Shown: positions 9,255 through 19,726, counted from the first letter of the stretch. The stretch: DNA of 64,000 nucleotides from Melioribacteraceae bacterium (GCA_026417375.1 JAOADJ010000008.1:96640-160639); one strand, 5' to 3'. The notes: generated by a model not told the origin, from the letters alone. Numbers and translations: made by a program.

Positions 9255-10037
9255 ATGACTTTAAAATTTTATCAGGTTGATGCTTTTACATCAAAAGTTT
9301 TTGGTGGAAATCCCGCCGCAGTTGTTCCACTTGAAAACTGGATTGAAGATGAACTAATGCAAAAAATTGGAATGGAAAACAATTTATCTGAAACTGCTTT
9401 TTTTGTTAAAGAAAACTCAAAATATCATATCCGTTGGTTTACTCCGGTAAACGAAGTTAATTTATGTGGTCATGCAACATTAGCTTCATCTTATGTAATT
9501 TTTAATTTCATTGAAAAAGAAATTAATGAAATTGTTTTCACTTCAAAAAGTGGCGATTTAATTGTTAACCGGGAAAACTATTTGATTTCATTAAACTTTC
9601 CAATTAATCCGCCACAAAAAATTGAATTTGATGAAACAATTGAAAAAGCATTTCAGCAAAAACCAATTGAAGTATTACGCGGTGGAAACTATACACTTGT
9701 AATTTATGAAGATGAAAATTTTATTCGCAATTGCAAACCAAATTTTGAATTGGTAAAAAAAATTGATCCGCATGGAGTTATTATTTCCTCAAAAGGAAAT
9801 GAAGCAGATTTTGTAAGCAGAATGTTTGCCCCAAACGAAGGAATTGATGAAGATCCGGTTACAGGTTCTTCACATACTGTTTTGATTCCATATTGGACAG
9901 AAAAACTTAGTAAGAAAATTTTTCGTGCATTACAGGTTTCAAAACGTGGTGGCGAGTTATTTTGCGAAAACCTTGAAACCCGTGTTAAAATCTCGGGAAA
10001 TGCAGTGCTTTATGCCACGGGAAATTTATTTTTATAA
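9255..10037 (+). CDS. PhzF-family isomerase/epimerase
   Basis: VDAFT..FGGNPAAV, NLSETAF, RWFTP..EVNLCGHATLAS, EDPVTGS. Confidence 0.93.
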   Translation: MTLKFYQVDAFTSKVFGGNPAAVVPLENWIEDELMQKIGMENNLSETAFFVKENSKYHIRWFTPVNEVNLCGHATLASSYVIFNFIEKEINEIVFTSKSGDLIVNRENYLISLNFPINPPQKIEFDETIEKAFQQKPIEVLRGGNYTLVIYEDENFIRNCKPNFELVKKIDPHGVIISSKGNEADFVSRMFAPNEGIDEDPVTGSSHTVLIPYWTEKLSKKIFRALQVSKRGGELFCENLETRVKISGNAVLYATGNLFL

Positions 10038-10140
10038 AAAATTCTTGTTTTCTTAATTTTTTTTTAAATTAAAAATTAATCTCTTTTTTCTATATTTTCG
10101 ATAGAAAAAATTAGCATTTCTCTTAAGGACAGAATTTTAT

Positions 10141-11865
10141 ATGAAATTTTTTCGTGGTGTGTTAATAATATTAACTTTAGCATTTCTGTTTTCTTGCGAT
10201 GCTCCTCATTCAAATCCTGCGGATCCACAAAATCCCAATAACAAATTTGCTCAAGTTGATGGTTATGTTTTAACTTATGAACAACCACGGGTTGCAATTT
10301 CTAATGTTAAAGTAGTTTGGAAAAATCAAAACATTTTAACTTATACAGATTCAACCGGATACTTTCGGATTCAGGATGTTCAGCGAATTGATGGTAAATT
10401 GATTTTTGAAAAAGATGGATATTCAAAAGATTCATCTGTTGTAAAATGGAATAACCAAAATACCAAAAGAATAGAAACTGTATTACTTTCTTTTACTTTT
10501 GGGGATTTAGATGGATTTGTTTTAACCAACGACCAACCACAACAACCAATTTCTAAAGTTAAAGTTTATTGGAAAAATGCGAATGTCATTGCTGAAACAA
10601 ATTCAAATGGTTATTTCAAAATTGAAAATGTTCCTATTAGAAGTGGAATGATTTATTTTGAAAAGGATGGTTTTAAATCGGATTCTCTTTTAGTTGAATG
10701 GACAACTCAAAAAACCAAGCGAATTGAAAATGTTTCATTAAAATATAATGTCGGAAGTATTGATGGTTTTGTTCAAACTTCTGATTTACCAAATCAACCA
10801 ATTAATAACGTAAAAGTTTTTTGGAAAAATCAAAATGTTTTTGCTACAACAAATTCAAACGGATATTTTAAGATTGACAACGTTCCGATAAAAAGTGGAA
10901 TGATTTATTTTGAAAAAGATGGTTTTAAGAAAGATTCTCTTTTTGTTAATTGGACTAATGAAAGAAGTAAAAGAATTTCAACTGTATTTTTAGATTACAC
11001 AATTGGCTCAATTAGTGGTTCAGTTTATACAATTGCTTTTCCACGTAAACCAATTTCAAAAACAAAAATTTATTGGAAAAACAACAACATAATAACAGAA
11101 ACAGATGCTTCGGGAAATTTTAGCATAAATAATATTCCAACTCAAAACGGTTTTATTTACTTTGATAAATCAGGTTATTCACCCGATTCTGCTTTTGTTA
11201 ATTGGGGTGGAAAAAACTCAGTTCGCGTAGAAAGTTTTTTAAACGCAAATCCACAATTGGATTCTCTTTCAATCTATACAATTGTTGAAAATCGTTATCC
11301 GGATATTCAGCGCTATCGTTTACAAATAAATGCAAAAATTTCCGATGCGGAAATAAATGATATTCAACTGGTTTATGTTAATAACAATAATTTAAAAATT
11401 AATTCTCAACTCATCTATAATAACGCAACAAGATTTTATGAGAGATTATTCGAACTATCAGATTTAAACATTGCTTCAATGGATGAAGCAATAGGTGAAA
11501 ATTTTAATATTATTGTTCGTGACCAATCATCAAAATTATTTAATGTCGGTTCTTCTACTATTAAAAGAATTATCCGTCAGGAAGTTGTAATTGAAAGTCC
11601 AATTGATAGATCAACAACAACATCAAAACCAACTTTAAAATGGAAAAGATATTTACCCGGTTTTAATTTCAAATATTTAATTCAGATCTACACAGATGAA
11701 GTTTCTCCAATATTAATTTGGCAAAAAGAAAATGTTTCTAAAGATGAAATCGAAATAACTCCAAATATAAATTTACCTATTGGAGATTACTTCTGGGTTA
11801 TTTGGGTTATAGATGATTTTGGTGATCGTTGCAGAACCAAACCAGCAACATTTACAGTGAAATAA
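10141..11865 (+). CDS. Lipoprotein with four tandem carboxypeptidase-regulatory-like (CnaB-type) beta-sandwich repeats
   Basis: Lipobox LFSC; four 84-aa repeats at an exact 252-nt period (10258, 10510, 10762, 11014), each DG.V...PI..VKV.WKN....T.S.GYF.I..V......FEK.G...DS. Confidence 0.8.
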   Translation: MKFFRGVLIILTLAFLFSCDAPHSNPADPQNPNNKFAQVDGYVLTYEQPRVAISNVKVVWKNQNILTYTDSTGYFRIQDVQRIDGKLIFEKDGYSKDSSVVKWNNQNTKRIETVLLSFTFGDLDGFVLTNDQPQQPISKVKVYWKNANVIAETNSNGYFKIENVPIRSGMIYFEKDGFKSDSLLVEWTTQKTKRIENVSLKYNVGSIDGFVQTSDLPNQPINNVKVFWKNQNVFATTNSNGYFKIDNVPIKSGMIYFEKDGFKKDSLFVNWTNERSKRISTVFLDYTIGSISGSVYTIAFPRKPISKTKIYWKNNNIITETDASGNFSINNIPTQNGFIYFDKSGYSPDSAFVNWGGKNSVRVESFLNANPQLDSLSIYTIVENRYPDIQRYRLQINAKISDAEINDIQLVYVNNNNLKINSQLIYNNATRFYERLFELSDLNIASMDEAIGENFNIIVRDQSSKLFNVGSSTIKRIIRQEVVIESPIDRSTTTSKPTLKWKRYLPGFNFKYLIQIYTDEVSPILIWQKENVSKDEIEITPNINLPIGDYFWVIWVIDDFGDRCRTKPATFTVK

Positions 11866-11869
11866 TTTT

Positions 11870-13360
11870 ATGAAAAACTTTTTTGTTGAAAATATTAATC
11901 ACATAAAAAATTTATCCAAAAATGAATTCGAATCGTTATATGAATTCACTCAAATGTTAAATACAGCAAGTGGGGAAGAAACTTTAATTGAAGATGCGAT
12001 GGATATTGTAATTAATGTAATAAATGCTGAGCGTGGTTTGTTCGTAAAGTATGATGATAAAACAGATTCTTTTTCAATAATTAGTGCAAGAAAAATCTCT
12101 AACGAAAGCATTACCGATTTAAATGAATTTTCATCCGGCATTCTTCAAAAAGTTTTAAAAGAAAAAAAACCACTTCTTTATCACGATGTAATGAGTGACC
12201 CAAATTTATCACAATTTCAAAGTGTCCAAATTCACAGAATAAAATCTGTAATTGGTGTTCCTATTATTCGTGATGATAAAGTTTGGGGAATTATTATTGC
12301 AGATAGCCAACTTGACCGACGTGAATTTACAGATGAAAATCTTCTATTCCTGAATTTCTTTTCTAACTTAATTTCACTTGCATTAGATAGAATTATAAAA
12401 CTTCAAGAGCTTGAAAAAGAAAACAAAATTCTTTTCAATAAACTTCAATCTACTGAACAAATTCCGGAAATGATTGGCAACAGCCCTGTAATGAGAAATT
12501 TATCTCAACTTATTTATAAAGTTGCTCAAACCGATGCAACAGTGTTAATTACAGGAGAAAGTGGAACAGGTAAAGAAATTGCTGCAAGAGCAATTCATCA
12601 GTTAAGTAAAAGAAAAAACAAACCATACCTTGCACAATTTTGTGGTTCAATTCCGGATAACCTTCTTGAAAGTGAATTGTTCGGATATAAAAAAGGAGCA
12701 TTCACCGGCGCAAATACTGATAAGCAAGGATTACTGGAAGCTGCAGATCAAGGCACTTTTTTTCTTGATGAAATTGCTGATATTTCACAAGCGCTTCAGG
12801 CAAAACTATTACGTGTTTTAGAGAATAAAGAAATCATACGGCTTGGCGATGTAAAAGTTAAAAAAGTTGATGTAAGAATATTAGCCGCAACAAATAAAGA
12901 TCTTCAACAATTAGTTAAAGAAGGTACTTTCCGCGAAGATTTATTTTATCGTTTAAATGTTTTCCCAATTAAAATGCCACCTCTTCGTGAAAGAAGAGAT
13001 GATATTCCATTGCTTGCAAGTCACTTTGTTAAAAAAATTTCTGGAAAAGATATTTCAATTGATACTTCTGCAATTAAAAAATTAGAAAGTTATTATTGGC
13101 CCGGAAACATCCGACAATTAATTAATGTAATTCAAAGAGCTATTATTCTTTGCGATACCAATAAAATATATGCTGAACAAATTATACTTGAAGATGAACA
13201 AAGTTTAGAAAATTTCAACGGCACACTCGAAGAATTTGAAATTCTTTTACTTAAAAAAAGATTGGAACAGTTTAACGGTAATAGAACTTTAACAGCAAAA
13301 TCTCTTGATGTTTCTGTAAGATGGATTCAACTAAAACTTAAAGAACTAGGCATTCAATGA
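11870..13360 (+). CDS. GAF-domain sigma-54 enhancer-binding protein (GAF-AAA+-Fis HTH)
   Basis: N-terminal GAF; Walker A GESGTGKE; GAFTGA; Walker B FLDEI; FREDLFYRLNV; WPGNIRQL; HTH FNGNRTLTAKSLDVS. No receiver domain. Confidence 0.95.
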   Translation: MKNFFVENINHIKNLSKNEFESLYEFTQMLNTASGEETLIEDAMDIVINVINAERGLFVKYDDKTDSFSIISARKISNESITDLNEFSSGILQKVLKEKKPLLYHDVMSDPNLSQFQSVQIHRIKSVIGVPIIRDDKVWGIIIADSQLDRREFTDENLLFLNFFSNLISLALDRIIKLQELEKENKILFNKLQSTEQIPEMIGNSPVMRNLSQLIYKVAQTDATVLITGESGTGKEIAARAIHQLSKRKNKPYLAQFCGSIPDNLLESELFGYKKGAFTGANTDKQGLLEAADQGTFFLDEIADISQALQAKLLRVLENKEIIRLGDVKVKKVDVRILAATNKDLQQLVKEGTFREDLFYRLNVFPIKMPPLRERRDDIPLLASHFVKKISGKDISIDTSAIKKLESYYWPGNIRQLINVIQRAIILCDTNKIYAEQIILEDEQSLENFNGTLEEFEILLLKKRLEQFNGNRTLTAKSLDVSVRWIQLKLKELGIQ

Positions 13361-14940
13361 TTTCCGGTTTAAGTCAAGAAATATTATTTGAAAAATTTCA
13401 GATTATTGAAGTACTTAAAAAAGATGAACACGCCGCTGTTTTCCTTGCTAATCATATTTATTTAAGCAAAAAAATTATTCTCAAAGTTTTAAACACTCAA
13501 AAAATTTCTGATAACGCTTTAGTTGAAAGATTTAAAAGAGAAGCAAAAATTTTAGCTCAGCTCGATAGCTCATATATTATCAAAGTTTTAGACTTCGGTA
13601 CTTTTCAGGAATATTTCTACATCTCATTCGAATATATTGAAGGATTATCTTTAAGAAATTTGTTAAAACAAACCGAATTGACTTTTGACCAGAAAAAACA
13701 TTTAATGATTCAACTTTTGAAAGGTTTACACTACGCTCACTCAAATCAAATAATTCATAGAGATATTAAACCTGAAAACATTTTTGTTGATAATTCTCTC
13801 AACCTAAAAATTGGTGATTTTGGTTTGGCGCTTTCTTCCGAAGATAATTTTGTGACCAATCCTTATTCAATTGTTGGAACACCAAGTTATATGAGCCCGG
13901 AACAGGTTCGTGGTGCAAAATTAAATCCTCAATCGGATTTGTTTTCTGCCGGTGTTGTTTTAGTTGAATTATTCACTGGTAAAAATCCTTTCCTAAAAGA
14001 AAACGTAAGTCTTACCTTAAACGAAATCATGTCCTATGATGAATCTATAATTTTAAACGATGCAGATGATCTACCTCAGGAAATAAAAGATGTACTTTTT
14101 AATTTATTAAGAAAAAATTTAAAAGATAGATACAATTCTGCAATTGATGTTCTTAAAGATTTAGGTGTTTCATTAGATCAACCTTCCTTGGTAATTACTA
14201 AGGAAAATAAAAAAGAAAGTTTAAAGAGATGGAGAACTTTTGCTTCCCTTTTTACTGTGATAATAATAATACTTTTTTATTATGCATTAACAACCATTGA
14301 TAAATTAAAATCAACATCAACCGAAAATTTTCCAATAACCAATCAAGATAATTCCAAAAACGAACCGGCAAAAAATGAAATTGCTTCTAAAAACCCACAA
14401 CCAGAAAATATTAACTTAGAAAATCTTGATAAGCCATTAATTGAAAACAAGAATGAAATAACAACCGAAAAAAAACAAAATGATAGTTCAAATGAATTGG
14501 CAACAACAAAAAAATTAGGTTATGGTTGGTTAGATATTCGCGGGACTCTTGGTACAAGAATTTATATTAATGGAGAAGATTTTGATGTAGATCCAATCAA
14601 ACCAATTTCATTACAAGAAGGGGAATACATTATTAAATATGAAAATCCTGATTATCCGCCTCATTCTCAAAAGATAAATATTATTGCTGGTCAGGCAACA
14701 AAAATACGATTCAACTTAGATCAACAAATTGGATTCATAAATTTTGATATTCGTCCATTTGGAAAAATATTTATAAATGAAGTTTTGAAAGGGGAAACTC
14801 CTCCGCCACTGAAAATGATTAAAGTAAATCCCGGATTTGTAAGAGTATCACTAAAAAACCCAAATTATAAAGATGTTGATACATTGTTAAAAATTGAAAA
14901 AGGGGATACGATTAATTTTATTTATAAGTTTAAAAAATGA
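13357..14940 (+). CDS. Membrane-anchored Hanks-type Ser/Thr kinase with C-terminal PEGA-like domains
   Basis: ILKVL, RFKREA, HRDIKPEN, DFG, GTPSYMSPE; one TM helix (FASLFTVIIIILFYYAL); C-terminal IYING/IFINE..GETP PEGA-like repeats. ATGA overlap with the activator gene. Confidence 0.92.
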   Translation: MISGLSQEILFEKFQIIEVLKKDEHAAVFLANHIYLSKKIILKVLNTQKISDNALVERFKREAKILAQLDSSYIIKVLDFGTFQEYFYISFEYIEGLSLRNLLKQTELTFDQKKHLMIQLLKGLHYAHSNQIIHRDIKPENIFVDNSLNLKIGDFGLALSSEDNFVTNPYSIVGTPSYMSPEQVRGAKLNPQSDLFSAGVVLVELFTGKNPFLKENVSLTLNEIMSYDESIILNDADDLPQEIKDVLFNLLRKNLKDRYNSAIDVLKDLGVSLDQPSLVITKENKKESLKRWRTFASLFTVIIIILFYYALTTIDKLKSTSTENFPITNQDNSKNEPAKNEIASKNPQPENINLENLDKPLIENKNEITTEKKQNDSSNELATTKKLGYGWLDIRGTLGTRIYINGEDFDVDPIKPISLQEGEYIIKYENPDYPPHSQKINIIAGQATKIRFNLDQQIGFINFDIRPFGKIFINEVLKGETPPPLKMIKVNPGFVRVSLKNPNYKDVDTLLKIEKGDTINFIYKFKK

Positions 14941-14977
14941 TTGGTACAATACTTGAACCAATCTTTATGAGTTTATT

Positions 14978-16249
14978 ATGAAAAATAAAATATTAATTGT
15001 TGTTTTATTTGCGAGTGGTATTTTGCTTGCACAACCTAGCTGGATAGTTAAGCTAAATAAAATGCCCTATCCGGTAAGCGGCGGGCAAGTTGTTTATGAC
15101 CCCTCTCCGCAAAGCACTAAAGTTTACATATTTGGTGGTTATTCAGATTCACTTCAACAAGCTGTTGACTGGATTCAGGAATATGATGTTGAAAAAGATC
15201 AATGGCGTATTGTTGGCAAAATGAATCAACCGAGACAGCAATTTGTTGCGGACTTATGGCAAAACAATGTTTTATTTTTTGGTGGAACTGTTGATTCTTC
15301 AAAACAAAAAAACACAATGGAAAGTTGGAATTTTCAACCATTCACACAAACCAAAGTTGTTGATGATAATGCCAATTTTGGAAGAGCTTATTCAACAGGT
15401 CACATTATTAACGATGATCTTTATATAATTGGTGGAACTCCATCCGGAATTTCTTCAACACAACTACCATATATTACTGCCTATAATCTTAAAACAAAAG
15501 AAACCAAAATTAAATATGACTTCACTTCCGAAGATAAACCAAGAAACAGAAGTACATTTATAGTCGGGGATAATATTTACATTTTCGGTGGCTTTACAAA
15601 TGGTGTAACTGAAAGAATTCAGAAGTTTAATATAACAACCCAAAAGCTTACAGATTTACAAGAACGATTATTAACACCACGTGGTGATGCTGCGGGAATT
15701 TATAATCCTACTTATAAAAAAGGATACATTATTGGTGGGAGAAATGAAAACAGTGCTGCTCTTTCATCTGTTGAAGTAATAATGCTGAAAAATGATGGAA
15801 CTTTGAAAATTGAAGAATCTGCTAAACTAAATTATGCGCGTACAAATTTGATGGTTGTAAATTATCGTGGTGCAATTGCTGTTTTTGGTGGTAAGGATAT
15901 TAAAGGAAAAGTCGTTCCTTATGTAGAAATCCTAATAGGAGAAACTGTAAATATTAACAATGAAAAACTTCCTTCTTCTTTTTATCTTAGTCAAAATTAC
16001 CCGAATCCATTCAATCCCGAAACAATAATTGATTATCATGTTTCATTTGAAAGCAGAGTAGTTTTAAAAGTATATGATATATTAGGAAACGAAATTACCA
16101 CGCTTGTAAATGAGGAAAAAAATCCGGGTGTTTATCACACAATTTTTAACGCAAAAGATTTACCAAGCGGAATTTATATTTATAAAATTTCTATTTCTGG
16201 TAAATTTGGAAATTATTTTCAAACAAAGAAAATGACATTAATTAAATGA
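14978..16249 (+). CDS. Kelch-repeat beta-propeller protein with T9SS C-terminal sorting domain
   Basis: Signal peptide; repeated YIFGG/YIIGG Kelch motifs; C-terminal LSQNYPNPFNPETII...YDILG...K.MTLIK. Confidence 0.9.
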   Translation: MKNKILIVVLFASGILLAQPSWIVKLNKMPYPVSGGQVVYDPSPQSTKVYIFGGYSDSLQQAVDWIQEYDVEKDQWRIVGKMNQPRQQFVADLWQNNVLFFGGTVDSSKQKNTMESWNFQPFTQTKVVDDNANFGRAYSTGHIINDDLYIIGGTPSGISSTQLPYITAYNLKTKETKIKYDFTSEDKPRNRSTFIVGDNIYIFGGFTNGVTERIQKFNITTQKLTDLQERLLTPRGDAAGIYNPTYKKGYIIGGRNENSAALSSVEVIMLKNDGTLKIEESAKLNYARTNLMVVNYRGAIAVFGGKDIKGKVVPYVEILIGETVNINNEKLPSSFYLSQNYPNPFNPETIIDYHVSFESRVVLKVYDILGNEITTLVNEEKNPGVYHTIFNAKDLPSGIYIYKISISGKFGNYFQTKKMTLIK

Positions 16250-17043
16250 TAAAAAAATTTTTCTTTTCATTTTTTCTTACAACAATTTTATTTGCTCAAA
16301 CAAATAGTTTGTTAGAAGTTAAAAAACTTTATGAAGATTACGAATATGAAAAAGTTATTCAAACTTCTAATGTTTTATTAAACGATGAGCAGTTTCCGGA
16401 TTCATTAAAAATTGATTTATATTTTATGCGGGCTGTCTCTTTCTTTGCTATTGGAAATGAAAATTTATCCAAAACAAATTTTGAAAATTTATTAAAGCTA
16501 AATAAAAACTACATTCTTGATACATCAAAGCTTTCTCCCAAAATAATCAACTTTTTTGATGAAGTTAAAAAAGAATATCTAAAGAAAGAGGAAGAAAAAA
16601 TTTACTCGCCAGAAAACCTGGAAAAATTAAAACAGTTAGCCCAAGAAAGAGAAAATGAACTGAAATATTCCGTTTTAAAAAATATTTTTCTGCCGGGATG
16701 GGGACAAGTTTCTCTCAACAATCAAAATAAAGGTTACGCTTTAATAGGACTTTCAATTTCAAATTTAGTTGCAGCTTTTTATTATATATATGATACTAAC
16801 AAAAAAGAAAATGATTACCTCTCCGAAATTGAAAAAACTTTAATTCCTCTAAAATATTCACGTTATAACGATTCATACAAAAAGAGAAATGTACTATTAA
16901 GTACTTTTGCATTTATTTGGCTTTACTCTCAGCTAGATTTGTTATTAAATGAAAAATACAAAGTTCAACAAAACTTACCTGAAATTAATTTGATATACGA
17001 TAGTAATAAAAATTATAAACTAAATTTTCTTTTAAGATTTTGA
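16246..17043 (+). CDS. Exported protein with TPR-like N-terminus and hydrophobic C-terminal region (FLPGWGQ motif)
   Basis: Signal peptide LLFAQ; helical N-terminal half; KNIFLPGWGQV followed by hydrophobic segments; overlaps the upstream stop codon. Confidence 0.65.
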   Translation: MIKKFFFSFFLTTILFAQTNSLLEVKKLYEDYEYEKVIQTSNVLLNDEQFPDSLKIDLYFMRAVSFFAIGNENLSKTNFENLLKLNKNYILDTSKLSPKIINFFDEVKKEYLKKEEEKIYSPENLEKLKQLAQERENELKYSVLKNIFLPGWGQVSLNNQNKGYALIGLSISNLVAAFYYIYDTNKKENDYLSEIEKTLIPLKYSRYNDSYKKRNVLLSTFAFIWLYSQLDLLLNEKYKVQQNLPEINLIYDSNKNYKLNFLLRF

Positions 17044-17078
17044 GTGAATATCCTTCGTTTCGGGCGAAAATTTTTCGC
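17044..17078. promoter_or_regulatory. Candidate tandem upstream activator sequences for a sigma-54 activator
   Basis: GTGAA-TATCC-TTCGT (17044-17058) and perfect dyad GCGAA-AATTT-TTCGC (17064-17078); centres 20 bp apart and about 120-140 bp upstream of the predicted start site. Confidence 0.55.
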
Positions 17079-17163
17079 ACCATTTTGAATTTGTTTTTAA
17101 ATAGAATCAATTAAATTCTTTGTTTTTAATCAATTAACTTAATAAAATAATTGGTTAATAAAA

Positions 17164-17179
17164 TGGCACAATCATTGAA
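17164..17179 (+). promoter_or_regulatory. Sigma-54 (-24/-12) promoter
   Basis: TGGCAC-AATCA-TTGAA versus consensus TGGCAC-N5-TTGCW; GG at 17165-17166, correct spacing, -12 base is A instead of C; AT-rich tract between it and the dyads. Confidence 0.65.
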
Positions 17180-17189
17180 ACAATAAATG

Positions 17190-17268
17190 CACACACACAC
17201 AACGGACTCCGTCCTTAAGATTGGCGAAGGGTAAAAAGTTTAAGATGTTCCTTCGCCTTCTTTTTTTT
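17190..17268 (+). ncRNA. Candidate ~80-nt sigma-54-dependent small RNA
   Basis: Begins 12 nt after the -12 element with (CA)6, then a short GGAC/GTCC or ACGG/CCGT hairpin, then GGCGAAGG (17223-17230)/CCTTCGCC (17250-17257) stem followed by TTC and T8. No plus-strand gene follows. Confidence 0.5.
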
Positions 17269-17299
17269 AAAGAATTTTTTTAATGAGTTAATTTTTTTG

Positions 17300-19726
17300 T
17301 TATAAAACCGGCGTGTTAATTCCAATCACAAAATTATTAAGCCCTTTGTAATTCAATTTCCATGTAAATTCAATTCTGAACGGAAATAGTTGTTGTCCCA
17401 ATCCAAATCCAATTTCTGCAAATGGTTTTTTGAATTCTGAAATTTTATTTGTTAATACATTTGTGGGTAAAATATTTTTACTTTGTTGTGAAGCTTCAAT
17501 ATATGAAGTGTTAAAATGAATACTAAAATTCATTTGCCAATCAATTAAAAAGGATAATCCCAATAGTCGGAAAAGTTCATCATTTAAATTATTTTCAACT
17601 GATAACATTATTACTTTGTCACCAAAAACTTCTCTTGTTCTTAACGTTCTGAAAGTAAATGATTGGCTACCGCTTTCAATATTTCCGGGTAGAGCAAAAA
17701 GCATTTGGTATGGAATTGCGTTTGTAGATTTAATACCAATTATTGAAAACCTTGTGCTTGCTGATTCAATTAATGGAAATGATCCGTTAATATTTAGTCT
17801 ATATGTTTCAAAATTTAAATCGCTTTTTAATATTTCTTTGTTACTAAAAATTGCTGAACCTCCGAATGTTATGAATCCATTTCCACTTCCAATTCTTCTT
17901 CTGAAATATCCATCTTCAATAAATTTTCTAAAATCGAATTGAAAAGATGTTGTAATTGCATTTATTCTTGTATTATAGATCGGTTGATTTACTGAATAAG
18001 ATTTATTTCTGTTTAGAATTGAGAAATCACTATTGTTACTTGCAGAATTATCTGTTCGGTTAAAATATCCTATTCCCAAATTCAAAATTGGAATTACCTG
18101 GCTTTGAACTGATAAACTAAATCCTTTGGTGTAATAATAATTTCTAAAATCATATTTACCTAAAACAGAGGTTAGTGTTGAAGTCAGTTTATTATATCTT
18201 ATTGATTCAGTAAATAAATCGGTTAGTTTATTAAAAAGGGAAAAAGAAATATTTGTTGTTCTATAATCTCCTAACAAATAATTAGCAGTAATACTTTGTT
18301 TAAATTTTTTATCACTAAATCCAAATGATAAATCCAAATCAGCGTTAAATCTTTTATCAAAAAGCTGAATTGCATTACCTCCAAAATTTAAAGCATGACC
18401 TTCGACATTATTGAAAGAATAAATTGATAACGGACCATAAACAGAAAAATTTTTATTTATTGATATTGTAGTTGAAAGTATAGAAAAGTTATCCCAAAAA
18501 GTTTTTTCAATTGCTTCTAAACTATCTATTCTTTTGTATGCTGCAAGTTCCTCTTCTGTATTTGGTATTGTTTGAATATTTCTCCAATAAGTTGAATCTC
18601 TTTTATCTGCATCAGCTTTTACTTTTATAACTGTCATGTCAAAAAATTTTTCATCGATGTTACTGTTAATTTTATAATCAAAGAAAATTGAATTTAATTC
18701 AAAAGCAAATTTGAATAATCCCATTGGATTACCTTCCACATTAATTCTATAATCAATTGGCATCACAATGTTGTTTTCAAATGGTGTGAACTGTTGAATA
18801 ATATTTATCTTGTTAAAAATTCTTCCGGGATTTGCCGGATCATTTAGCCCTGCTTCGAGTTTAACCAAATTGTATGTTTTATCAGAAATGTAAAGTGTTC
18901 CAACAAAACCGGGATTAATTCTTTTCAATGGTTCAAATTTTATTTTGAATACATTTTGTTTATCCATTGCAAGTGTATCTTCAATAAAATAATCATAATA
19001 CTCAATTGCTTCATCGGCTATTGGACTTAACAAAGGACGATTAAAAAACCGAATGTCATCTGTGTAGAAATTTTGAATTAATCTTCCGCCGGTAAATATA
19101 TTAATTGTAGATGGTGTATTTGCGCTTTGTTTTCTTGCTATTATTTCATCTTTATAAAAATTTGGTTTTTTATAATAACCACGGCTTTCATTTTCAATTA
19201 ATCCAGTAATTTTAAGTTTTGATGAATCGCCACTTGAATCGCCAACAGCAACACTAACTTGAGTTCCGCTTGAATTAAAATCTCTTACTGTTTTTATTAT
19301 TCCTTTTGTATAAGCACTAAAAATGTAAGAATCAATTTTTTGATTTCTTTCATGTTTCGCTTCAATTACTCTTCTTATTATTTCAAGTGCTGGGTTTTCT
19401 CCGGGTAAAACAGTTATTTCAGAAAGATTAATTGGAACTGGTTCTAATTTGATTTCTAAAAATTTATCAGTAGTGAGTTTTACATTTATCGTATCTGAAA
19501 TATATCCAATGTTCGAAACTATTAATTTATAATTTCCTTTTTCTAATCTTAATTGAAATAATCCATCAAATGTTGATGCAGTTCCATAATTTGTTCCGGC
19601 AACACGAATATTAGAATAAGCAAGTGCTTGGTCATTATTTTTATCTGTTACTTTCCCTTTAATTAAAAATTGTTGAGCATTAATTTGAAATGTTACTATC
19701 AAAAGAATGAAATAGAGGAACTTCAT
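17300..19726 (-). CDS. DUF5686-like outer-membrane protein with N-terminal carboxypeptidase-regulatory-like domain
   Basis: ATG at 19726 after AGGAG; signal peptide; KGKVTDK...LAYSNI...GTAS..DG.F.L; IIRRVIEAK; C-terminal beta-barrel with KKPFAEIGFGL. Confidence 0.8.
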   Translation of the reverse strand: MKFLYFILLIVTFQINAQQFLIKGKVTDKNNDQALAYSNIRVAGTNYGTASTFDGLFQLRLEKGNYKLIVSNIGYISDTINVKLTTDKFLEIKLEPVPINLSEITVLPGENPALEIIRRVIEAKHERNQKIDSYIFSAYTKGIIKTVRDFNSSGTQVSVAVGDSSGDSSKLKITGLIENESRGYYKKPNFYKDEIIARKQSANTPSTINIFTGGRLIQNFYTDDIRFFNRPLLSPIADEAIEYYDYFIEDTLAMDKQNVFKIKFEPLKRINPGFVGTLYISDKTYNLVKLEAGLNDPANPGRIFNKINIIQQFTPFENNIVMPIDYRINVEGNPMGLFKFAFELNSIFFDYKINSNIDEKFFDMTVIKVKADADKRDSTYWRNIQTIPNTEEELAAYKRIDSLEAIEKTFWDNFSILSTTISINKNFSVYGPLSIYSFNNVEGHALNFGGNAIQLFDKRFNADLDLSFGFSDKKFKQSITANYLLGDYRTTNISFSLFNKLTDLFTESIRYNKLTSTLTSVLGKYDFRNYYYTKGFSLSVQSQVIPILNLGIGYFNRTDNSASNNSDFSILNRNKSYSVNQPIYNTRINAITTSFQFDFRKFIEDGYFRRRIGSGNGFITFGGSAIFSNKEILKSDLNFETYRLNINGSFPLIESASTRFSIIGIKSTNAIPYQMLFALPGNIESGSQSFTFRTLRTREVFGDKVIMLSVENNLNDELFRLLGLSFLIDWQMNFSIHFNTSYIEASQQSKNILPTNVLTNKISEFKKPFAEIGFGLGQQLFPFRIEFTWKLNYKGLNNFVIGINTPVL

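Follow-up and report, generated by a model that had tools for sequence, protein, structure and literature searches.

What controls a sigma-54 activator that carries neither a receiver nor an FHA domain and whose gene overlaps that of a membrane-bound Ser/Thr kinase? Sigma-54 activators are normally controlled by receiver domains, ligands or partner proteins. The question is raised by five genes at positions 10141 to 17043 of a 64,000-nucleotide (nt) stretch of DNA, hereafter the window, from a member of the Melioribacteraceae (Ignavibacteria) whose nearest named relative is Stygiobacter electus. A first-pass annotation had read these genes as one operon encoding a trans-envelope relay, and open reading frame (ORF) calls and Pfam searches reproduced all five genes, their coordinates and their domain content. 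Our analysis favors an envelope signalling cassette in which the kinase probably feeds the activator, with adjacent sigma-54 units as outputs. The genes are as follows.

10141..11865, plus strand: gene 1, lipoprotein
11870..13360, plus strand: gene 2, GAF-AAA+-HTH_8 sigma-54 activator
13357..14940, plus strand: gene 3, Pkinase-transmembrane (TM)-2xPEGA protein
14978..16249, plus strand: gene 4, Kelch propeller with a type IX secretion system (T9SS) sorting domain
16246..17043, plus strand: gene 5, TPR-like membrane protein

The gaps between successive ORFs are 4, -4, 37 and -4 nt, and no minus-strand ORF of at least 80 amino acids (aa) lies inside the five-gene region.

Conservation of the activator and kinase genes as a pair

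Gene 2 encodes a protein with the features of a sigma-54 enhancer-binding protein. Pfam searches identified a GAF domain, a Sigma54_activat domain (PF00158, E 6e-70), an AAA lid and HTH_8, and the translation of the AAA+ domain shows KGAFTGA, Walker A (GESGTGKE) and Walker B (FFLDEI) motifs. The match of the C-terminal Fis-type HTH is borderline (22.3 bits for a cut-off of 22), and the segment is conserved in 47 orthologues. The host genome contains rpoN (Sigma54_DBD, 202 bits, at G000:C19:61600-62073), 14 sigma-54 activators and 4 Hanks kinases. The N terminus of the gene 2 product consists of the GAF domain; Pfam returned no match to a receiver domain (Response_reg) and none to FHA at an E value of ≤0.01, which places the protein outside the FHA-containing activators known from myxobacteria. 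It also scores below every NCBIfam equivalog cut-off, with NifA as the best model (TIGR01817, 386.9 versus 528.85 bits) and GlrR at 274.9 bits for a cut-off of 763.

In the product of gene 3, a single TM segment and a low-complexity linker separate the cytoplasmic part (residues 1 to 285), with a Hanks-type kinase domain (PF00069, E 5e-51), from two PEGA domains in the periplasm, which Pfam recognized as two stretches. Across 45 orthologues, no variation was seen at the kinase Lys, Glu, HRD, Asn and DFG positions or in the activation-loop GT...PE. The protein falls outside the PknB/Stk1 PASTA class (NF033483, 243.7 versus 450 bits), as the match is confined to the kinase domain and the ectodomain is made of PEGA. 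The start of the kinase gene overlaps the stop of the activator gene by 4 nt, and with few exceptions the activator-kinase junction measures -14 to +3 nt across the loci.

In species-representative genomes, a protein-guided scan found 27 orthologous loci, all from Melioribacteraceae or Ignavibacteria, which are collinear in the order PhzF-gene 1-activator-kinase-Kelch-gene 5 wherever the contig allows. The locus of Stygiobacter electus 09-Me (L001), a cultured relative, is laid out like that of the window, and its kinase is 85% identical. Twenty loci from six further families and from deep branches of the same family keep the order gene 1 (C-terminal half)-activator-kinase-(Kelch)-gene 5, the lowest identities being 26 to 29% for the kinase, 22 to 26% for gene 5 and 24 to 27% for gene 1. 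The activator is the most conserved protein of the cluster, at 80 to 97% identity within the family and 40 to 69% in other families. An independent search of the class for the activator led to the same genomes, at coordinates adjoining the kinase, and added one family (f13; families are designated by such labels below). Across at least eight families, no related locus with sufficient flanking sequence departs from this order. The neighborhood check proposed in the first-pass annotation thus came out in favor of co-conservation within the class, down to 22 to 29% identity. PhzF is restricted to f1, and on the downstream side the gene content changes already between the closest species. As far as such comparisons go, they support a co-conservation of the cassette genes that far exceeds what shared descent explains.

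The activator and the kinase are kept together with particular strictness. Among 301 genomes of the class, the pair occurs in roughly 66 (counted by hand from tables); each full-length kinase orthologue has an adjacent activator orthologue, bar search or assembly artefacts, and no activator orthologue was found without the kinase. A 400-genome sample of the phylum yielded no full-length kinase orthologue outside the class. In f11 and f15, the two functions reside in one protein of 1,700 to 1,770 aa with the architecture Pkinase-AAA_16-TPR-GAF-Sigma54_activat-HTH_8. Its activator part is the best gene 2 match in those genomes, and its gene is immediately followed by a sigma-54 motif and an orthologue of gene X, the output gene described below. 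The evidence is weaker in f28, where a cut-off ORF (L058) encodes TPR-GAF-activator and has a downstream sigma-54 motif, and where a sister locus (L057) shows kinase and activator matches on one strand. It is mainly the fusion, the strict co-occurrence and the coupled junctions that argue for a functional pairing of the kinase with the GAF activator.

A four-gene core and an optional Kelch protein

Across the compared loci, the core of the cassette is four genes, encoding the lipoprotein, the GAF activator, the PEGA kinase and the TPR-like membrane protein, and the Kelch gene is optional.

The gene 1 product contains four CarboxypepD_reg-like repeats (Pfam, E 2e-34). Its sequence shows a lipobox (LFSC) whose Cys is conserved almost without exception across 20 orthologues. 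The AlphaFold model (predicted local distance difference test score [pLDDT] of 88) is an all-beta string of six beta-sandwiches, corresponding to the four repeats and two C-terminal sandwiches, and Foldseek matched it only with generic Ig/FN3 strings. Class-wide conservation is limited to the last repeat and the C-terminal half, distant families matching residues 285 to 574. Close relatives differ in the number of CarboxypepD_reg repeats, from one (approximately 320 aa), which is also the form seen most often in the class, to five (655 aa).

No Pfam family was assigned to the gene 5 product, DUF5683 (PF18935) staying below threshold (11.1 versus 26.7 bits, E 0.39). Its AlphaFold model (pLDDT 78) consists of a TPR-like N-terminal domain and a two-helix membrane hairpin, and the Foldseek matches were limited to generic TPR proteins. 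An alignment of 20 orthologues shows a signal peptide or anchor, the TPR-like periplasmic domain, a PGxGQ motif and the hairpin. Of the earlier description of a TPR-like exported protein, the fold was upheld and simple export was not, as the modelled hairpin argues for membrane anchoring. Gene 5 is a core member of the cassette and, according to this model, its product is membrane-anchored.

Gene 4 encodes Kelch repeats followed by Por_Secre_tail (33.1 bits, cut-off 27; TIGR04183, 32.1 bits, cut-off 23), i.e., the C-terminal type A sorting domain that identifies T9SS cargo. Dozens of further sorting-domain proteins are encoded in the host genome, which suggests that it also encodes T9SS machinery. 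Two families (f17 and f25) and one f3 locus lack the Kelch gene. There, gene 5 comes directly after the kinase gene, at -4 to 12 nt in the two families and at 271 nt in the f3 locus.

A PhzF-family gene (window positions 9255-10037) immediately precedes the cassette in every Melioribacteraceae locus and not in other families. It is probably a neighbor and not a member of the cassette.

Sigma-54 promoter motifs at two positions

Two sigma-54-type motifs, a pair of dyads and a putative small RNA gene were located in and directly after the cluster.

14942..14957, plus strand: sigma-54-type -24/-12 motif TGGTACAATACTTGAA (TGGTAC-N5-TTGA) in the kinase-Kelch spacer
17052..17079, no strand assigned: overlapping dyads TTCG-N7-CGAA and GCGAA-N5-TTCGC after gene 5, read from the sequence
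17164..17179, plus strand: predicted sigma-54 promoter TGGCACAATCATTGAA (TGGCAC-N5-TTGA), identified as a motif
17190..17268, plus strand: predicted small RNA of approximately 79 nt, with a CA-repeat 5′ end, an invariant core CUCCGUCCUUAAG, a GC-rich terminator hairpin and a U8 tail

The first motif, TGGTACAATACTTGAA, begins 2 nt past the kinase stop codon and lies 20 nt ahead of the Kelch ATG. A -24/-12 motif is present in the kinase-Kelch spacer of 22 of the 36 Kelch-bearing loci (f1, f3, f12, f16 and f26), where the background rate of these loci would give 0.11; the loci come from related genomes and are not independent samples. The other 14, all from Melioribacteraceae, show no sigma-54 motif before the Kelch gene. 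Similarly, 30 of 43 loci have a motif in the 300 nt that follow gene 5, where 0.42 would be expected. These counts amount to enrichments of roughly 200-fold before the Kelch gene and 70-fold after gene 5. In the window alone, a relaxed sigma-54 pattern gave 15 matches for 19 expected in shuffles. The downstream motif is one of five strict TGGCAC-N5-TTG[CA] sites in the host genome. Both window motifs end in TGA, not TGC, at -12, as do the four strict genomic sites out of five that use TTGA, and the orthologous sites alternate between TTGC and TTGA.

The presence of a sigma-54 motif between the kinase and Kelch genes in so many loci makes it improbable that the five genes form the single operon first proposed. 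The Kelch-gene 5 segment has the appearance of a unit under sigma-54 control that entered an ancestral gene 1-activator-kinase-gene 5 operon. No intrinsic terminator was detected within the cluster by a sigma-70/terminator scan that did not rise above shuffles and is uninformative for this phylum; as no terminator separates the genes, read-through into the Kelch gene and gene 5 is still possible. The Kelch protein appears to be an accessory member and an output of the cassette, not its outermost sensor, because its gene is missing from some families and usually preceded by a sigma-54 motif. The presence of T9SS cargo at the other sigma-54 promoter in most families fits cargo as the output.

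Downstream of gene 5, comparison supports the output promoter anticipated there, since the dyads and the -24/-12 motif occupy the same place across families. The dyads at 17052-17079 are a probable upstream activating sequence for the activator. The distance from dyad to -24 element is approximately 85 to 110 nt, and related dyads directly follow the gene 5 stop codon in almost all loci, as GCGAA-N5-TTCGC in f1, f3, f16 and f26 and as TGCA/TGCGCA in f12, f17 and f25. The pattern CGAA-[AT]5-TTCG has three matches in the 2.83 Mb of the host genome; no sigma-54 motif lies near the other two sites, which therefore point to no extra regulon members.

In f12, f16, f17 and f25, the downstream promoter precedes an orthologous gene of 680 to 870 aa, gene X, whose product contains FN3, He_PIG, several CarboxypepD_reg domains and a T9SS sorting domain. 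No gene X orthologue was found in the host genome. Gene 1 was considered as a relative of protein X and rejected, their similarity being weak and at the level of common CarboxypepD_reg repeats. In seven Melioribacteraceae loci (L009, L010, L011, L013, L015, L017 and L018), gene 5 is followed by a STAS-domain gene instead, and a decayed dyad-like sequence remains after gene 5 in L017.

A predicted small RNA at the downstream promoter

In the host genome and in 15 related loci, the downstream promoter is followed by a near-invariant predicted small RNA. It and the dyads are conserved far better than the spacer around them. A search of window positions 16900-17400 against Rfam gave only chance-level matches (E of at least 0.75). 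A covariance model of the small RNA, R1, identified a single copy in the host genome and a copy after gene 5 in 16 related loci. Of the family genomes searched with R1, 17 carry the cassette and 8 of these have a match, which adjoins the cassette in 7; the 6 without the cassette have none. This genome set probably overlaps the earlier loci and does not provide independent counts. The exception among the 8 is G160, in which the small RNA (L080:2133-2216, minus strand) lies on a different contig from the cassette and has no CA-repeat while keeping the core CUCCGUCCUUAAG. This relocated copy is accompanied by a dyad-like sequence and a sigma-54 promoter of its own. No covariation was detected, the stems being invariant, and the structure is thus supported by folding energy only (z = -2.2).

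When 6,481 candidate translation starts were scanned for duplexes with the small RNA, the start of gene 1 ranked third, at -25.3 kcal/mol (mean, -9.0; standard deviation, 3.3). Within window positions 10120-10170, the complements of both conserved single-stranded motifs of the small RNA are found in the gene 1 leader UCUUAAGGAC and in codons 6 to 8 (GGUGUGU). Pairing of the small RNA with the gene 1 start is a tentative proposal, because the complementarity is retained in only part of the loci that bear the small RNA. The top-ranked partner in the scan was a LemA-family gene (G000:C53:213384-213989), with -28.2 kcal/mol across codons 2 to 14.

A second GAF-type activator (576 aa) is encoded elsewhere in the host genome, divergent from glnB-amtB. 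Downstream of it are a strict sigma-54 promoter, TGGCACAAGCATTGAA, and then approximately 130 nt of non-coding sequence before rpmH. This stretch (L033:5070-5215, minus strand, equivalent to G000:C6:71069-71214) has a core of approximately 75 nt that is 76 to 87% identical in about 10 genomes of the genus, and it may represent a second sigma-54-dependent small RNA.

Proposed mechanism and alternatives

We propose that the PEGA ectodomain reads a periplasmic or envelope cue, probably with the lipoprotein and the TPR-like protein. The kinase would then switch the co-translated activator on or off, most likely through the GAF domain or the linker region, and the activator would bind the dyads after gene 5 and drive sigma-54 transcription of the adjoining units. 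The outputs in the host genome would be the Kelch surface protein with gene 5 and the small RNA; in most other families, the downstream promoter would drive the large T9SS-secreted FN3/Ig/CarboxypepD_reg protein encoded by gene X. In this scheme, we infer the action of the kinase on the activator, the binding of the dyads, the firing of both promoters and the nature of the signal. More speculatively, and with less than even confidence, we suggest that a Hanks-type kinase serves Ignavibacteria as a dedicated, direct input to a sigma-54 activator through its GAF domain or linker, that the system exists in split membrane and fused cytoplasmic forms controlling T9SS surface proteins, and that the small RNA of one lineage feeds back on the gene 1 start.

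Several observations weigh against the proposed cassette. GAF domains usually bind small ligands, and the kinase thus need not be the input of the activator. The seven Melioribacteraceae genomes with a STAS-domain gene after gene 5 keep the cassette (activator at 80 to 85% identity) without recognizable sigma-54 motifs or small RNA. R1 found no match anywhere in them, and of 18 dyad matches fetched across the seven, none lies near a -24/-12 motif. In those genomes, the activator must therefore have other or unrecognized targets. Finally, no dyads were found within 350 nt upstream of the Kelch promoters in 23 loci, which makes control of the Kelch gene by the activator less secure than that of the downstream promoter.

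The usual ligand-binding role of GAF domains would allow a different organization, in which the GAF domain, by sensing a small ligand in the cytoplasm, alone would control the activator, the kinase with genes 1 and 5 would phosphorylate other proteins, for example of the envelope or the T9SS, and the linkage would reflect participation in the same process. The activator indeed lacks FHA and receiver domains, the known phospho-dependent inputs, the GAF activators NifA, FhlA and NorR are established as ligand- or partner-controlled, and the host genome has only 4 Hanks kinases for 14 activators. Two such independent branches are nevertheless unlikely given the strict adjacency, overlapping junctions and co-occurrence of the two genes across eight families, and given that, in sister families, one protein joins a kinase to a related GAF activator and is encoded upstream of the same output gene. 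We consider it more improbable still that the five genes are an operon for an outside-in relay, as the first-pass annotation had it, with the Kelch protein and the lipoprotein sensing a cue that reaches the activator by way of the PEGA kinase. The surface Kelch protein looks unlike an outermost sensor, since f17, f25 and one f3 locus do without it and retain the other genes; where present, its gene is usually preceded by a -24/-12 motif, and the other sigma-54 promoter also serves T9SS cargo in most families. What speaks for the relay is the tight packing of the genes with no intrinsic terminator detected inside, making read-through likely, and the 14 Melioribacteraceae loci in which the Kelch gene has no such motif.

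The arrangement could also be inherited synteny and nothing else, with -24/-12 matches arising by chance, as the relaxed pattern in the window, whose frequency does not exceed that in shuffles, might suggest. This is very hard to reconcile with flanking genes that are not conserved outside the family, with motifs enriched at two fixed positions, and with dyads and a small RNA far better conserved than the nearby spacer. A cassette in which the kinase feeds the adjacent activator is therefore the reading that we prefer.

Relation to known systems

All parts of the cassette come from known families; the novelty lies in the fixed way they are combined, kept class-wide in both split and fused forms, and in the adjacent outputs. 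A full-text literature search turned up neither the cassette nor the small RNA.

The closest working analogy is the QseE/QseG/QseF (GlrK/YfhG/GlrR)-glmY system of Enterobacteriaceae, in which one operon encodes a membrane kinase, a periplasmic lipoprotein acting on the kinase and a sigma-54 activator (PMC6075780). QseF binds upstream activating sequences and drives a neighboring small RNA that functions in envelope homeostasis (PMC6075780). A membrane kinase, a lipoprotein, a sigma-54 activator and an adjacent small RNA are thus found in both systems. However, QseE/QseF signalling uses a histidine kinase and a receiver domain, whereas the system described here has a Hanks-type PEGA kinase and a GAF domain, and the cassette adds a TPR-like membrane protein and T9SS cargo as output. 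No sequence relation was found between its small RNA and GlmY. The difference in kinase type and in activator input domain indicates that the cassette is not a member of the QseE/QseF family.

The PxrR-Pxr system of Myxococcus likewise has a small RNA gene beside the gene of its sigma-54 activator, with a -24/-12 promoter and a terminator of the intrinsic type. In the LuxO-Qrr system of Vibrio, a small RNA also adjoins its activator gene and has a -24/-12 promoter and an intrinsic terminator, as here (PMC10162802). In contrast with the GAF activator of the cassette, the activators of those two systems are response regulators fed by phosphorelays, and their small RNAs are unrelated in sequence to that of the window. 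Control of sigma-54 activators by Hanks-type kinases has a precedent in myxobacteria, for which Jelsbak, Givskov and Kaiser reportedly proposed in 2005 that such kinases act as inputs through FHA domains. The activator of the cassette differs in having no FHA domain and in being part of a fixed, translationally coupled pair within an envelope cassette.

Fusions of a kinase with COG3899/STAND, TPR and FhlA-type modules have been noted as “CP1 pseudokinases” in a review of bacterial pseudokinases (PMC12599244). The Pkinase-AAA_16-TPR-GAF-activator proteins of the sister families, encoded upstream of gene X, share this CP1 architecture. In contrast, the window system is split, and its kinase is membrane-bound with PEGA domains, keeps the catalytic HRD, DFG and Lys and has no STAND/TPR module. 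The GAF-AAA+-HTH order of gene 2 is common to NifA, FhlA and NorR. The cassette has no nif, hyc or nor genes nearby, and it is a separate GAF activator of the host genome that sits beside glnB-amtB.

If the proposal is correct, the translationally coupled pairing with a eukaryote-like Ser/Thr kinase would represent a distinct input route to sigma-54 activators, one retained across a whole bacterial class and fused into a single protein in sister lineages. The cassette should be easily testable because its presumed outputs adjoin it, each with a recognizable promoter, and a probable binding site lies beside it. It would also exemplify the replacement of a protein-coding output by a small RNA at the same regulated promoter. 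More generally, the cassette connects sigma-54 control with T9SS surface proteins in a poorly studied group of bacteria, in line with the proposed role of sigma-54 in governing the bacterial exterior (PMC3162934).

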